Assembly (NCBI GenBank): GCA_035256305.1
Contig: DATEYH010000138.1
Span: forward strand, 1 to 37,343
DNA length: 37,343 bases
Direction of reading: 5' to 3'
Source: Candidatus Nanoarchaeia archaeon
Lineage (GTDB): Archaea > Nanobdellota > Nanobdellia > Woesearchaeales > SM23-78
Shown here: positions 9,969-37,343 of the stretch, piece after piece
Position numbering within the stretch: position 1 is the first letter of the stretch
Layout: each line of letters starts with the position of its first letter
Translations under genes and position numbers: made by a program
Notes under the pieces: generated by a model
What the model was told of the DNA's origin: nothing
What the model saw: only the letters and a program-made list of their open reading frames with translations
Database searches by the model: none

Positions 9969-10188
9969 GAAAGCAAAAAAGGTGATAAAGGAAAATCAGG
10001 ACATGTTCAACGTACTCGAAGAGCTTGACAGGACAGGCGCCTACAGGAAGGCATCATACAAGCAAAGAGTCAACTTCACAGTGGACGAGGAGCTGTTTAA
10101 CAAGTTCAGAAGCTACTGCAAGAAGAAAGGAATCAGCATGTCAGCAAGAGTAGAGGAATGCATGAGAAAGCAGCTGGAGAAAGCATAA
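9952..10188 (+). CDS. ribbon-helix-helix (CopG/Arc-like) protein, putative antitoxin of Doc
   Basis: RVNFTVDEELFNKFRSYCKKKGISMSARVEECMRKQL fits strand-helix-helix. Overlaps the Doc stop by 17 nt if the GTG start is used (alternative ATG 10003). Confidence 0.6.
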   Translation: MQSFTEKAKKVIKENQDMFNVLEELDRTGAYRKASYKQRVNFTVDEELFNKFRSYCKKKGISMSARVEECMRKQLEKA

Positions 10189-10326
10189 GAGTTCTTGAAT
10201 TATTTTCGTTTTTTTCCTGTTAATCACGAAAATTAATAATAGCATTATATAAATGAGTGGTTTGACATGGTTATTGACCAAAAAGCTTATATACTAAGCA
10301 TATATATCTATATATGTGATGTATAT

Positions 10327-28022: not shown

Positions 28023-28555
28023 TTAAGAATAAAACAAAAATTCTTTTTTATATTTAATTTTGAAACATAATTTCTTAGAAATAATAAATTAATGATAGCT
28101 GTTCATAGGAATCAACAACCAAGGTTGTTGAGCCAAAAATTCTGAGGAATTTTTGTGCATCATAGTCTTTGCTTCTCAGAGCCAATTCTCTGATTTGATT
28201 GTTAAATGAGAGATTGGACTTATTAGTGGCTGCATGCTGAGCACCTTGTTGCCTTGGTGCGTACACACCAGCTCTATCAACCCGATCTTCTATCGGCGTC
28301 CATGAGCGTCTCTTTTCAAGGATGGCTTCATACTTAGATGCTTTCAGTATTTATCCATGTAAAGCGTAGCTGCCCGGCCTACCCTGTCGGATAACCGGTC
28401 GACCAGAGGCTTCGGGCCCTCGTTCCTCTCGTACTAAAGGTCCCTTCCTTTCAGACACCCAACACTTCCAGTAGATATCAAACAAACTGCCTCGCAGCGT
28501 TCTGAACCCAGCTCACGATCCCTTTTGATAGGTGAACACCCTCACCCTTGGCCGC

Positions 28556-28588
28556 ATACAGTACCTTCTTACTTTCGCAAAAAGGTTA
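28556..28588 (-). other. 33-nt BHB-type mini-intron in 23S domain V (hairpin after GAUGUCGGCU)
   Basis: Outer helix GGCCG/CGGCC, central helix GCAG/CUGU, bulges AAU and AUG, inner helix ACCUU/AAGGU. Removal gives CCGUGCAGAAGCGGCC, the conserved archaeal LSU sequence as I recall it. Confidence 0.6.
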
Positions 28589-28852
28589 TTCTGCACGGCC
28601 AGGATAGGAAGAGCCGACATCTATGTAGCAAACCGCGCCGTCGATAGGAGCTCTCGGGCGCGACAACTCTGTTATCCCCGGAGTAACTTTTCGGTCGGTA
28701 CCGTCCCCCATTCAAGGAGGAACGGCAGTTCGTTAGGCCCAACTTTCGTTTCTGGTATTCTTCTTATTCAAATACCAGTCAGGCTGGCTTTTGCCCTTAC
28801 ACTCAACATCGGATTTCTGACCCGACTGAGCCAACCTTGGGGCGCCACTGAT

Positions 28853-28897
28853 ATAAAGCGAGCATAGACAAGCTTTATCAAGCAATCTATTGCTCAT
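28853..28897 (-). other. 45-nt BHB-type mini-intron in 23S domain V
   Basis: Textbook helix-bulge-helix-bulge-helix: GCCGCUGA/UCAGUGGC, central AAAG/CUUU, two AUA bulges, inner helix UGAGCA-UAGA/UCUAUGCUCG. Removal gives GCUGAAAAGAUAUCAGUGGC. Confidence 0.75.
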
Positions 28898-29233: not shown

Positions 29234-30005
29234 CACATCTGTTACTTCCCTTAAAATTTAAGGTACTGACCTTCTCTTTAAGGCGGACAAGCATTTCTAC
29301 TAGTTGCTCAAAAATCTCAAATGATTTTTGGCAACCCCAAAACCACATGGTTTTGATGTCTCCTCACATCGCTATGAGGGTCGGACTATATCTTAACACT
29401 CATCAAAGAGTGTTTTTGGCGTATAGTCTCTGAGGATTCTAGACGCCTTATGACTTTTCGGTTCATCTCAGAAGCAAGTTCAGCTATTTTCTCTAAGCCT
29501 GCTCTTGACAAGTGCTCCTTTTTATTCATAATCCCTAATATTTGTGCAAAGAGTTCAAAGCTATTCTTCTTAGAAGTTTGAAGAGGATTTTCATTTATGA
29601 ACTGAACTATACGGTTCAGGTTGTCTAATCCTCTCACTCGGAACTCTTTCCTATCTCCGTTATTCACAGTTACGCTTCCAAAACCAAAATATGACTTGAT
29701 TCTGTGAAGTACTGCTTCATCGCGTTGATGTTGCACTATCCTTAATTCAGGGAGTACCTGCCATTTTAAGGTCATTTTCTCTAATCTATTAATAGACACA
29801 TGAAAACAACCTTCTCCATCAATGAATCCGACAATCCACTTAGCATCCAGTCTTTCCTGCTGATTATCTGCACCTATCACTTTTTCACCCTGACAACATA
29901 TAAACGTTTTAATTTAAATAGCTCACGTTAATATGTCCAGTGGTAGTGTAGGACTCTCAGACGTCCCAGCATATAGCCAGATTGTTTAAGGCAACTTCTG
30001 TGCTT
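29234..30005 (-). mobile_element. group I intron (772 nt) in 23S domain IV, carrying a LAGLIDADG homing endonuclease ORF
   Basis: Interrupts CUUAAGGU|AGCGAAAUGCC. The 5' exon ends in U, paired as U.G in a 7-bp P1 with internal guide GCCUUAA 13 nt into the intron. The intron ends in G. AAGAUAUAGUCCGACC (the classical S/P7 3' element) follows the ORF, with candidate P7 partner GGACAUAU. Confidence 0.75.
29386..29880 (-). CDS. LAGLIDADG homing endonuclease (single-motif type)
   Basis: KWIVGFIDGEGCFHVSI motif near the N-terminus; 164 aa; GTG start; sits inside the intron and its stop codon lies within the AAGAUAUAGUCC core element. Confidence 0.85.
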   Translation of the reverse strand: MIGADNQQERLDAKWIVGFIDGEGCFHVSINRLEKMTLKWQVLPELRIVQHQRDEAVLHRIKSYFGFGSVTVNNGDRKEFRVRGLDNLNRIVQFINENPLQTSKKNSFELFAQILGIMNKKEHLSRAGLEKIAELASEMNRKVIRRLESSETIRQKHSLMSVKI

Positions 30006-32377: not shown

Positions 32378-33224
32378 ATGCCGGGGGTATAATCCCCTTT
32401 TGCTCCTGTGAATAGCAAAAAAATAATGTGGTAGGAGAAGAACTAGCCTAACAAGATTCTAATATTTATATAAAAAATTATAGGAGGTGATCCCACCGCA
32501 GGTTCCCCTACGGTGACCTTGTGACGACTTAACCCATCTCACTGAACTCAGGTTCAACACAACCAAGAAAGCTGTGTTTCACCTAAACCCTGCTCGATTG
32601 GTTTGACGGGCGGTGTGTGCAAGAGACAGGGACATATTCACCGGACTATGCTAAAATCCGATTACTAGGGATTCCATCGTCACGAGGCTGAGTTACAAGC
32701 CTCGATCTGAACTAAGATATGGTTTAGAGGTTTAGCTCCCCCTTTCGGGGTGGCATCCCATTGTCCATACCATTGTTGCGCGCGTGTAGCCTAGAGCATT
32801 CGGAGCATACAGACCTACCGTAGCCTGCACCTTCCTCCCTGTTTCCAGGGCAGTCCCCTCAAAGTGCTCAATCCATCCGTGGATGTTGTTAGCAATAGAG
32901 GGTACAGGTCTCGCTCGTTGCCAGACTTAACTGGACGCTTCACAGCACGAGCTGGCGACGGCCATGCACTACCTCTCGGCTTGTCAGGTAATGTCTTCAG
33001 CATGACCTTCATTCTGCCGTCGGCTCTAGTGAGGTTCTCTGCGTTGAGTTAGATTGAACCGCACGCCGCACCCCTTGTGGTGTCTCCCCGCCAATTCCTT
33101 AAAGTTTCAGCCTTGCGACCGTACTTCCCTGGTGGCGAGCTTAACGACTTCTCTTCGACACTGCGCATCCTCGTGGGGTGCGCAATACCTTGCTCGCAGC
33201 GTTTACAGCTAGGACTACTCGGGT

Positions 33225-33368
33225 AATTAGCACCTTTATTTCCATAACGTATCAGAATTTGCAATGGATTGTAGTAATTTTTTCTTGGCAAAAACAAATC
33301 GTTCAGTGGGTTTTAACGAAGTTAAAATCCCACATTGCATTTTTTGGTACAGCTTTGATTAAAGGTGT
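33225..33368 (-). other. 144-nt BHB-type intron in 16S, inside the GGAUUAGAUACCC block
   Basis: Central helix UUAG/CUAA, bulges AUA and UUA, 8-bp inner helix CACCUUUA/UAAAGGUG. Cutting after the 2nd bulge nt restores GGAUUAGAU|ACCCGAGUAGUCC. Contains a 12-bp UUCG-capped hairpin. Confidence 0.8.
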
Positions 33369-35538: not shown

Positions 35539-35702
35539 TGCCCCGAACGGGATTTGAACCCGTGTCCTCGGATGTTTTCGGCGTGAGGCAAAAACCTCAG
35601 CAACTTTGTTGCTCGCCGCGAAAATCCGAGATGATTGTTCCCGCAAGGGAACCAAGGAAACAGCTTCCTTGTTTCCTTTGGACCGGACTACACCATCGGG
35701 GC
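35539..35702 (-). tRNA. tRNA-Glu(UUC) with two introns (about 43 nt in the D-loop, 35635-35677; 45 nt at 37/38, 35574-35618)
   Basis: Acceptor GCCCCGA/UCGGGGC, D region GUGUAGUCCGGUCCAA..UCAU typical of archaeal tRNA-Glu, anticodon stem UCGGA/UCCGA, loop UUUUCG-A, variable GGAC, T arm ACGGG-UUCAAAU-CCCGU. D-loop intron ends are ambiguous by about 2 nt. Confidence 0.8.
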
Positions 35703-35705
35703 AAG

Positions 35706-35906
35706 TGGGCCCACAGGGACTTTCACCAGATATTTGCACCTTCGGTAACGCGGAGGACTTAACGAAGTTAATGTCCTCCTTGCTTGCTTTTTACCAGATT
35801 TTTCGGCAAAAATCTGTTTTGAACCCCAGACCCCCGGCTGTCCTATTCAGTGTTCGAAGCACTGCCTTATAAGACCGGTGCTCCAGCCAGGCTAAGCTAT
35901 GGGCCC
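35706..35906 (-). tRNA. tRNA-Ile(UAU) with two introns (28 nt at 37/38, 35840-35867; 98 nt in the T-loop at 59/60, 35720-35817)
   Basis: Acceptor GGGCCCA/UGGGCCC, D arm GCUU/GAGC, anticodon stem CCGGU/GCCGG, loop CUUAUA-A, variable GGGUC, T stem UGGGG/CCCUG. T-loop intron has a canonical BHB: central UUCA/UGAA, bulges AAA and AGU, inner helix CAGAU/AUCUG. Only 3 nt separate it from tRNA-Glu. Confidence 0.85.
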
Positions 35907-37240: not shown

Positions 37241-37343
37241 GATAATCTTCCATTACCTCTTTTTAATATTCCATTATGCCTTATAGTTAAAAATATTTTC
37301 TTTTTTTGTTAGTACCAGAAAAGAAAGAAGGATGCGCCGACCG

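Follow-up and report, generated by a model that had tools for sequence, protein, structure and literature searches.

A tRNA-Ile(UAU) gene of a Woesearchaeota-like archaeon and its T-loop intron, a probable member of a dispersed family of structured, endonuclease-spliced elements

Known archaeal tRNA introns measure 11–129 nucleotides (nt), with medians of 12–25 nt (PMC4090602). In Thermoproteales, introns bounded by bulge-helix-bulge (BHB) motifs are described outside the anticodon loop, with several per tRNA gene, and similar introns in different tRNA species are taken there to imply spread by an "intron transposition" of unknown mechanism (Sugahara 2008; Fujishima 2010, as summarised in PMC4090602 and PMC4033280). 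Here we analyzed a stretch of 37,343 nt (contig DATEYH010000138.1, assembly GCA_035256305.1; hereafter the window), in which a minus-strand tRNA-Ile gene with a UAU anticodon carries one intron in the anticodon loop, between tRNA positions 37 and 38 (37/38), and a second one of 98 nt in the T loop, between positions 59 and 60 (59/60). The T-loop intron appears to be one copy of a dispersed family of elements with a core of two hairpins, P1 and P2. Position 59/60 is a recurrent intron position in Thermoproteales.

The introns described here resemble those of Thermoproteales, as summarised in the two papers above, in their BHB motifs outside the anticodon loop, in occurring several to a gene and in having sequences common to different tRNAs. 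In contrast, the present host is not a crenarchaeon and belongs to the DPANN archaea (named after Diapherotrites, Parvarchaeota, Aenigmarchaeota, Nanoarchaeota as well as Nanohaloarchaeota), being Woesearchaeota-like; the shared part is a covarying, structured P1/P2 core with an identifiable intron-specific adaptor; copies are common to T loops, 16S and 23S rRNA and also to sites outside introns; and the introns measure 81–157 nt, against the reported medians given above. The haloarchaeal and euryarchaeal tRNA-Trp intron with its box C/D small RNA (sRNA), as cited in PMC4090602, is likewise long and structured beyond the need of splicing, whereas the present intron has no C or D box, lies at 59/60 rather than 37/38, occurs in multiple copies, and is found in some close relatives and missing from others.

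Crenarchaeal 16S and 23S rRNA introns (Jay & Inskeep 2015, PMC4496867) are also BHB-bounded inserts in rRNA loops; they are viewed as mobile, and some of them, short hairpins without an open reading frame (ORF), merely maintain the BHB. The site at about 793/794 in the 790 loop found here is not among the loci of that study, and here the inserts in rRNA share homology with the T-loop introns of tRNA genes in the same genomes. The tRNA-Thr gene of Caldiarchaeum (Sugahara 2012, PMC3293823) likewise combines population-level presence and absence of an intron with stray tRNA exon fragments beside the insert; the DNA inserted there is 1.8 kilobases (kb) long and has a recombinase, whereas the units here are 70–160 nt, non-coding and without a recombinase seen. 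The DPANN endonucleases treated in PMC3239211 and PMC5829648 (the epsilon2 form of ARMAN, the archaeal Richmond Mine acidophilic nanoorganisms, and alpha4 forms with an L3 loop) are the expected enzyme context for relaxed BHB or bulge-helix-loop motifs at non-canonical positions; the parts of those papers that concern these enzymes describe them and count disrupted genes, and contain no shared structured intron family. Full-text literature searches returned no description of such a family, which is weak evidence of absence. The intron itself is a BHB intron, of a known kind; what appears to be new is the structured, dispersed family.

The tRNA-Ile(UAU) gene and its splice motifs

Introns were mapped by aligning the genes to the mature tRNA, and spliced products were confirmed with ARAGORN. 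The gene is laid out as follows.

35706..35906, minus strand (read from 35906 to 35706): tRNA-Ile(UAU) gene, 201 nt, three exons and two introns; in-silico splicing and orthologues
35868..35906, minus strand: exon 1, tRNA positions 1–37; in-silico splicing and intron mapping
35840..35867, minus strand: canonical 37/38 intron, 28 nt, with a relaxed BHB; BHB scan
35818..35839, minus strand: exon 2, tRNA positions 38–59; in-silico splicing and intron mapping
35720..35817, minus strand: 59/60 T-loop intron, 98 nt, predicted member of the dispersed P1-P3-P2 family; in-silico splicing, BHB scan, 89.9 bits with the covariance model R1 (below), intronless alleles
35706..35719, minus strand: exon 3, tRNA positions 60–73; in-silico splicing

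In-silico excision of the 28 and 98 nt leaves a standard cloverleaf of 75 nt, which ARAGORN calls tRNA-Ile(TAT), with the anticodon UAU at tRNA positions 34–36. On the unspliced DNA, no tRNA was reported by ARAGORN, with intron mode on or off, or by Rfam, at gathering or permissive thresholds, and detection of the gene therefore required manual splicing. The fold of the whole 201-nt gene has a z-score of −3.8 and beats all 200 dinucleotide shuffles. The gene lies beside a tRNA-Glu gene and upstream of the rRNA operon, an arrangement kept in many loci. A first-pass annotation of this DNA had proposed a 201-nt gene for a 75-nt tRNA, interrupted by 28 nt in the anticodon loop and 98 nt in the T loop; the lengths proved exact (75 + 28 + 98), and both introns are borne out by the spliced cloverleaf, by introns at the same positions in orthologues, with compensatory changes, and by relatives that lack the T-loop intron. 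With a probability of roughly 0.8, we regard 35706–35906 as a real, functional tRNA-Ile(UAU) gene with two BHB introns, of which the one in the T loop is a dispersed, endonuclease-spliced element; this reading rests on sequence comparison.

The flanking gene just upstream encodes a Na+/H+ exchanger whose named homologues come from Woesearchaeota and Nanoarchaeota. Judged by such sequence affinities, the host is a Woesearchaeota-like DPANN archaeon. Three other assemblies hold the same strain, with 0–2 differences over the 461-nt tRNA region compared, and an identical sequence occurs in three independent assemblies. Assemblies of the organism come from ERZ4902897, ERZ4902948 and SRR4030043. In a search for synteny based on the exchanger, the contig of P0004 had no tRNA and the usable orthologue was L004 (related loci are cited by such numbers). 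Its exchanger is 79% identical, its tRNA-Ile exons are near-identical, and its introns, of 31 and 111 nt, lie at the same positions and have diverged.

A degenerate pattern for exon 1, applied to one genome per species, returned at least 119 loci. Among the matches listed, to which the following counts also refer, the UAU anticodon was present in 100 or more genes of DPANN archaea and bacteria of the candidate phyla radiation (CPR), and introns in the T arm of tRNA-Ile(UAU) were common in DPANN. In genes of the window type, the 59/60 introns measured 20, 20, 26, 30, 81, 98, 99 and 111 nt, those of 20–30 nt belonging to L010, L020, L087 and L095; all use UUCA/UGAA and end in GAAAG or GAAAU before U60. 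L041 (labelled Woesearchaeota), the nearest species representative, shares the mature tRNA without any difference and has introns measuring 28 and 99 nt; it is a different species, the identity being 88% across the region of the tRNA-Ile gene and about 80% in flanking DNA. Other DPANN, some labelled Aenigmatarchaeota and some "uncultured archaeon", have T-arm introns of up to 121–143 nt, and T-loop introns longer than the 98 nt of the window occur in L168 (157 nt) and in L013 and L085 (143 nt each). The window intron is thus long but inside the published range of 11–129 nt, which some relatives exceed. As a separate observation, tRNA-Ile genes that encode a UAU anticodon occur widely, both among DPANN archaea and among bacteria of the CPR and Chloroflexota (at least 119 loci, L006–L124). 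Very long inserts adjoin the anticodon loop of tRNA-Ile(UAU) in L037 (186 nt, an Iainarchaeum metagenome-assembled genome) and L086 (323 nt, an uncultured archaeon); with their boundaries approximate, these exceed the 129-nt maximum of PMC4090602.

A metagenome search with an exon-2 pattern mostly matched an unrelated intronless tRNA sharing the same 22-mer; 16 matches were informative for tRNA-Ile. Orthologues with the same tRNA-Ile exons were L004, L041, L132, L160, L161, L156 and L168. Behind the same exons the T-loop intron measures 46 nt in L139, L180 and L191, 95–96 nt in L132, L157, L161 and L160, and 138 and 157 nt in L156 and L168, and it is absent from L143, L164, L163 and L152, whose T loop TTCAAATCCCTG is exactly the predicted ligation product. 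Because intronless relatives carry this loop, the splice junctions are genetically supported. Since relatives show empty, short and long states, the T-loop intron has been gained, lost and resized on short evolutionary timescales. The 37/38 intron is retained in all orthologues found with the exon-2 pattern, including those without a T-loop intron, and its hairpin covaries.

Splice motifs were located with a BHB scan, a search for helix-bulge-helix-bulge-helix geometry. Both introns show two opposite-strand 3-nt bulges around a central helix of 4 base pairs (bp). At the T loop, the T stem (5 bp, including two G-U pairs) serves as outer helix and UUCA/UGAA as central helix, with the bulges AAA and AGU; cuts between the second and third bulge nucleotides give the T loop UUCAAAU. 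At the anticodon loop, the 5-bp anticodon stem takes the outer position and CUUA/UAGG the central one, with the bulges UAA and ACA. Pairs were then counted for two competing structures in an alignment of five close orthologues (A2), in which the T stem and the central helix are always paired. The parts of the T-loop motif are these, where X is the 5′ strand of P1, which includes CAGAU.

35820..35823, minus strand: UUCA (tRNA positions 54–57), 5′ strand of the T-loop central helix; BHB scan; invariant and always paired in A2
35722..35725, minus strand: UGAA, 3′ strand of the central helix, within the host-matched tail G-UGAA-AG; BHB scan and listing of the complements of X
35727..35731, minus strand: X″ (AUCUG), distal complement of X in the BHB inner helix P0; 96% paired, three double-sided changes; followed by an unpaired G at 35726

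Both motifs are relaxed. The T-loop inner helix CAGAU/AUCUG has 1 bp on a strict reading and 5 bp if a 1-nt spacer, the unpaired G before UGAA, is allowed; because this G intervenes, the 5′ site is a 3 × 1 internal loop instead of a simple bulge of 3 nt. In the anticodon motif, a contiguous inner helix of Watson-Crick pairs is missing; GG/AA mismatches come first and then CAGUG/CACUG. Neither motif has the contiguous outer and inner helices of the strict hBHBh′ form, the outer helices being sound at 5 bp each. Relaxed BHB forms are known substrates of broad-specificity splicing endonucleases, and DPANN endonucleases with an extra loop accompany disrupted tRNA genes (both from the account of these enzymes in PMC5829648). 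By analogy, we infer a broad-specificity DPANN endonuclease that tolerates the relaxed motifs.

Two folds of the intron and a dispersed element family

The 98-nt intron contains two hairpins.

35795..35816, minus strand: P1, CAGAUUUUU-GCCG-AAAAAUCUG, formed by X and its local complement X′, 9 bp; 100% paired, three double-sided changes in A2
35752..35779, minus strand: P2, GGAGGAC-A-UUAAC-UUC-GUUAA-GUCCUCC, with a 7-bp lower stem, a bulged A, a 5-bp upper stem and a triloop

The excised intron folds at −30.0 kcal/mol with a z-score of −4.8, and none of 200 shuffles was as good. P1 and the inner helix P0 exclude each other because both use the strand CAGAU. In A2, X is nevertheless 100% paired with local X′ (P1) and 96% paired with distal X″ (P0), P2 is 100% paired with four pairs changed on both sides, and P3, a short helix, reaches 95%. 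In L160, three double-sided changes are compensated in both partners of X, so that X, X′ and X″ covary as three segments; in L004 the three-segment pattern is matched through coordinated indels. The intron sequence encodes two conserved, mutually exclusive folds, P0 and P1.

When the T stem and central helix were held fixed, a distal rod fold beat the P1 fold in most orthologues; for the window intron the constrained energies are −35.9 and −33.1 kcal/mol, respectively. Within the rod, the loop of P1 has a distal partner, and these pairs covary as well (window, UUUGC/GCAAA; L132, UUAGG/CCUAA; L160, GCG/CGU). Once the intron is excised, the P0 and P1 states are close in energy, with P0 often ahead in linear and circular forms; the minimum-energy fold of the free window intron is the P1 state. 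A refolding switch from P0 before excision to P1 afterwards was considered and rejected, since the energies give no clean switch.

The first-pass annotation had described the T-loop motif as a textbook BHB with two stable hairpins inside the intron. Its central helices and bulges were as we find them, while the word textbook is too strong for two relaxed motifs, one of which has an inner helix that competes with a local hairpin. Both hairpins exist; the first, P1, is incompatible with the inner helix listed beside it, and the letters of the second had been taken from the wrong strand, the RNA reading as given for P2 above.

In archaea, oligo-T signals the termination of transcription. The coding strand has five T in a row at 35808–35812 (minus strand; intron positions 6–10), within P1, and most family copies keep them. 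Such a run is odd inside tRNA and rRNA genes.

The intron had also been taken as a one-off. Instead, it belongs to a dispersed family, and longer T-loop introns were found. A short-word BLAST comparison of the introns with all retrieved loci located copies at 59/60 of tRNA-Val(UAC) (L051, where the tRNA-Ile intron of this locus is 93% identical across 71 nt, and L087), in the neighbouring tRNA's T loop (L095, L030), in another tRNA (L160), in 16S rRNA (L156, whose own tRNA-Ile intron is 88% identical across 84 nt, and L067) and in domain V of 23S rRNA (L161, 87–88% over 67–77 nt to the tRNA-Ile introns of L132 and the window). We built a covariance model of P1-P3-P2, R1, from an alignment (A3) of seven copies in three host contexts. 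At E ≤ 0.01 it gave 25 matches, which mapping against rRNA and tRNA genes assigned to tRNA-Ile, tRNA-Val, tRNA-Glu and another tRNA (59/60), to 16S and 23S rRNA and to spacers. In L161, the 23S copy scores 93.2 bits and the tRNA-Ile intron of the same locus 93.3 bits. With filters off, the window holds exactly two R1 copies, the T-loop intron (89.9 bits) and a 16S intron (28 bits, E = 2.5e-4); a further copy of the same strain lies just past its end.

33224..33367, minus strand: 16S 790-loop BHB intron, 144 nt, after GGAUUAGAUA, at about E. coli 793/794; tail CUAA-UUA pairs with exon UUAG; R1 28 bits
L001 3117–3363 (same strain, about 1 kb past the window end): tRNA-Val(UAC), 247 nt, with three introns, in the D loop, in the anticodon loop (42 nt) and at 59/60 (109-nt family copy)

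The 16S copy of the window and the tRNA-Ile intron have the same P2 apex, UUAACUUCGUUAA. Introns at the same 16S site are present in the window, L157, L161, L143, L051, L067 and L156, and the site is empty in L095, L132 and L020. Copies outside introns lie 3 nt after a tRNA-Ile without a T-loop intron (L164), directly after tRNA-Gly (L107) and beside duplicated tRNA exon fragments (L160, L132). Some loci have further oddities: in L132 (about 1290–1440) and L161 (about 10140–10280), a reversed element copy is followed by a second 3′ exon (gtgagaa-TCCCTGTGGGCCCA) about 150 nt downstream of tRNA-Ile, and with this exon and the same 5′ site a strict BHB is possible, giving an alternative intron of 244 nt. 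L004 and L160 likewise have duplicated tRNA end fragments.

Over 23 distinct copies, in an alignment that was fitted to the model and so favours pairing, pairing reaches 94% in P1, where 9 of 9 pairs show double-sided changes, and 98% in P2, where 11 of 12 pairs do, which makes 20 of 21 pairs for the two together. P3 is the weakest helix of the family (73% paired). The whole family structure is 92% paired, compared with 29–51% when partners are slid.

Every complement of X downstream of each copy was listed. Most intron copies have a local X′ (8–9 bp) and a distal X″ (5–9 bp), the latter followed immediately by a host-matched tail, which reads G-UGAA-AG|U where the exon ends in UUCA or UUCG and CUAA-UUA|C where the 16S exon ends in UUAG. 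The non-intron copies of L107, L164 and the reversed L132 copy have X′ only. Four intron copies (L041, L168, L030 and the 23S copy of L161) showed no anchored Watson-Crick X″ in this listing, and in L156 the distal pairing is shifted. Between the L067 16S intron, which starts with GAGATTTTTGCCAAAAATCTCGTAAAAAGCAA, and the tRNA-Ile intron of the window, which starts with CAGATTTTTGCCGAAAAATCTGGTAAAAAGCAA, the first and last bases of X, X′ and X″ differ in concert. The sequence after X′ (G-UAAAAAG) resembles the T-loop tail; it may be left over from a duplication, or it may have been pre-adapted to pair with the UUCR that is universal in T loops.

A proposed mechanism and its rivals

We propose that the core consists of P1 and P2, joined by an A-rich linker and the short P3, and that it would become spliceable on carrying X″ and a 4-nt exon complement (UGAA in T loops, CUAA in the 16S 790 loop). 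X″ would close the intron into a rod and supply the inner helix of the BHB. In the precursor, the anticodon stem with CUUA/UAGG would present the 37/38 sites, and the T stem with UUCA/UGAA the 59/60 sites. By established archaeal biology, the splicing endonuclease (EndA) would then cut both bulges at each site, and an RtcB-type ligase would join the exons and probably circularise the introns. The distribution of copies suggests that the element spread as DNA, reaching T loops of tRNAs, loops of rRNAs and spacers that flank tRNA genes; an inserted element would be tolerated because the host endonuclease removes it, and would persist wherever the host is able to splice or trim it out. The hairpins may be kept so that the insert folds on itself, spares the folding of tRNA or rRNA and presents the splice motif. 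Most likely, the element is a mobile, self-folding, endonuclease-spliced intron.

Several points weigh against this account. Both BHB motifs of the tRNA-Ile gene are relaxed, and splicing-enzyme genes (endA, rtcB) were not found within the window, which bears on the type and tolerance of the enzyme. Splicing, ligation and circularisation are carried over from other archaea, and mobility at the DNA level is read from the distribution of copies; no target-site duplication, associated recombinase or viral copy was found for the element. The 16S copy of the window is a weak R1 match at 28 bits, and the fitting of the 23-copy alignment to the model counts here as well. P1 and P0 exclude each other and both are compensated, yet a pure insulation model has no obvious need of P1 given P0. 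Finally, the bulged A and the UU/AA pairs of P2 are conserved in sequence beyond what a generic hairpin needs.

One rival, which takes up the suggestion of a stable RNA made in the first-pass annotation, is that the intron carries a functional, stable small RNA, possibly circular, in which P1-P2 is released by splicing or end-processing and acts in trans, for example by binding protein, with P1 as the native fold and P0 confined to the precursor. Compensatory change of P1 and P2 in 23 copies across tRNA introns, rRNA introns and non-intron spacers, the sequence-level conservation within P2, the retention of P1 and P2 without X″ in non-intron copies, and the P1-state fold of the free window intron with its z-score of −4.8 all speak for such an RNA. 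There are also precedents in the C/D sRNA of archaeal tRNA-Trp introns, as cited in PMC4090602, and in the stable circular tRNA introns of animals (PMC4536317). However, close relatives with identical exons have no T-loop intron, or a short or unrelated one (46 nt in L139; 20–30 nt in L010, L020, L087 and L095), and modules are freely gained and lost, as in L156 and L168. P0 is still favoured after excision in most orthologues, with no clean change from precursor to product, and no long conserved single-stranded segment resembling a guide was seen. Nor do known classes fit: the C box (RUGAUGA) occurs in 0 of 14 family introns and the D-box tetramer (CUGA) is absent from the window copy, no copy has an ACA within its last 12 nt as expected of an H/ACA RNA, and the T-loop introns of the window and seven related loci have no match in Rfam 15. 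We consider a trans-acting RNA rather doubtful on balance.

Could the element instead be a DNA transposon resembling a miniature inverted-repeat transposable element (MITE), with X and X″ as terminal and X′ as subterminal repeats, a transposase or recombinase encoded elsewhere and the RNA structure a by-product? In the window, X and X″ form an 11-bp imperfect inverted repeat, CAGATTTTTGC...GCAAATATCTG. Copies stand at unrelated sites within one genome and also outside introns, right after tRNA 3′ ends (L164, L107) and beside duplicated exon fragments (L160, L132), a pattern resembling the integration-linked tRNA fragments of PMC3293823. The non-intron copies, however, have no terminal inverted repeat because X″ is absent there, and sequence inspection showed no target-site duplication at the T-loop or 16S sites; for these two reasons a classical MITE was rejected. 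Moreover, the changes in P1 and P2 among paralogues are compensatory and not identical, which argues for selection on RNA pairing, and the 3′ tail is complementary to each host exon, a tail that a cut-and-paste element would not bring. No transposase lies nearby and no viral copies are known from our searches: the P2 pattern was unmatched in IMG/VR and the P1-pattern matches were plain AT-rich hairpins, so a viral origin was also dropped. This makes a transposon of that kind improbable.

Two further explanations have little to recommend them. Removal of two nested introns in steps, an inner BHB around P3 and P2 and then a short hairpin intron, would account for a BHB-like motif that can be drawn at P3 (GGUA/UACC, bulges AAA and GAA) and for the likeness of G-UAAAAAG after X′ to the tail G-UGAAAG after X″. 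Yet the outer helix of the inner motif is only 2 bp, inspection of A2 showed no conservation of it in L132, L161 and L160, P3 is 73% paired family-wide, and the same loose rules find a "BHB" at 13% of random positions; the motif being weak and not conserved, we rejected this very unlikely reading. Rule-based assembly of BHBs over all copies was likewise not used as evidence, since 13% of random positions pass and the rules are too rigid for the 16S sites. Least probable of all, and only barely conceivable, is that an insertion disrupted the tRNA gene and left it non-functional or in decay, with AUA read by another tRNA. The unspliced locus is indeed missed by ARAGORN and Rfam and the BHBs are relaxed, but the exons are near-invariant among relatives in which the flanking protein shows just 79% identity and the introns have diverged, the few changes within exons compensate one another (49/65, 7/66, 2/71), the BHB helices covary, and the place next to tRNA-Glu and upstream of the rRNA operon is kept in many loci.

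Protein-coding content was rejected too, the longest ORF of the circularly read intron being 29 amino acids and unsupported by the substitution pattern. Group I introns occur in large-subunit rRNA genes of Woesearchaeota (PMC6125680); such an origin was rejected here, as 98 nt compares with at least about 200 nt needed and Rfam gave no match over the region at gathering or at E ≤ 10.

On the preferred reading of a mobile, self-folding intron, one more far-reaching version is, in our view, possible rather than probable. P1-P2 may be an undescribed mobile element of Woesearchaeota-type DPANN that colonises T loops, the 790 loop of 16S rRNA, domain V of 23S rRNA and the trailers of tRNAs and becomes spliceable through its 3′ adaptor, and the excised, probably circular RNA might have a function.

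Other features of the window and significance

The remaining genes around the element are these.

34131-32482, minus strand: 16S rRNA gene
31977-28202, minus strand: 23S rRNA gene
35539..35702, minus strand: tRNA-Glu(UUC), two introns, 3 nt downstream of tRNA-Ile; identified by comparison with L095; context, not a family copy

The tRNA-Glu(UUC) introns are one of about 43 nt in the D loop, its boundary ambiguous by 1–2 nt, and one of 45 nt at 37/38 with a 2-nt 3′ bulge. ARAGORN and Rfam did not detect this gene; in the tRNA-Glu of L095 the D arm and anticodon arm are uninterrupted, and that of L003 has a C-to-A variant in the D stem. Relative to L095 and L161, the 23S gene contains a 771-nt insertion at about 29234–30004 (minus strand), with a LAGLIDADG homing-endonuclease ORF at 29386–29880 and no group I match in Rfam. 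Relative to L095 it also has two extra segments of about 35 nt, near 28555–28589 and 28854–28893. The last 11 nt of a tRNA-Gly(GCC) gene run off the window end at 37333–37343 (minus strand); the full gene, with an anticodon-loop intron, is at L001 4109–4195. Between 14000 and 20000 the GC content is low (0.32–0.36, against about 0.42), with a 772-amino-acid ORF with a CAP/cysteine-rich secretory domain and several ORFs without a Pfam match. BRO-N and Fic-domain ORFs lie near this stretch, at 9.6–11.8 kb. The low-GC stretch may be an island.

Taken by itself, a non-canonical BHB intron in a tRNA gene is nothing special in archaea whose splicing endonucleases have broad specificity. The unusual feature is a structured family across several tRNAs, both rRNAs and non-intron spacers, with empty sites in close relatives and with the adaptor on most intron copies only. 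Standard tRNA and rRNA finders miss or mis-measure such genes, which helps to explain incomplete tRNA sets in DPANN. The family offers a comparative series for testing models of how endonuclease-spliced introns are gained and move. If the element is indeed mobile, its bare copies, adapted copies, duplicated exon fragments and empty sites would be intermediates of BHB-intron gain.

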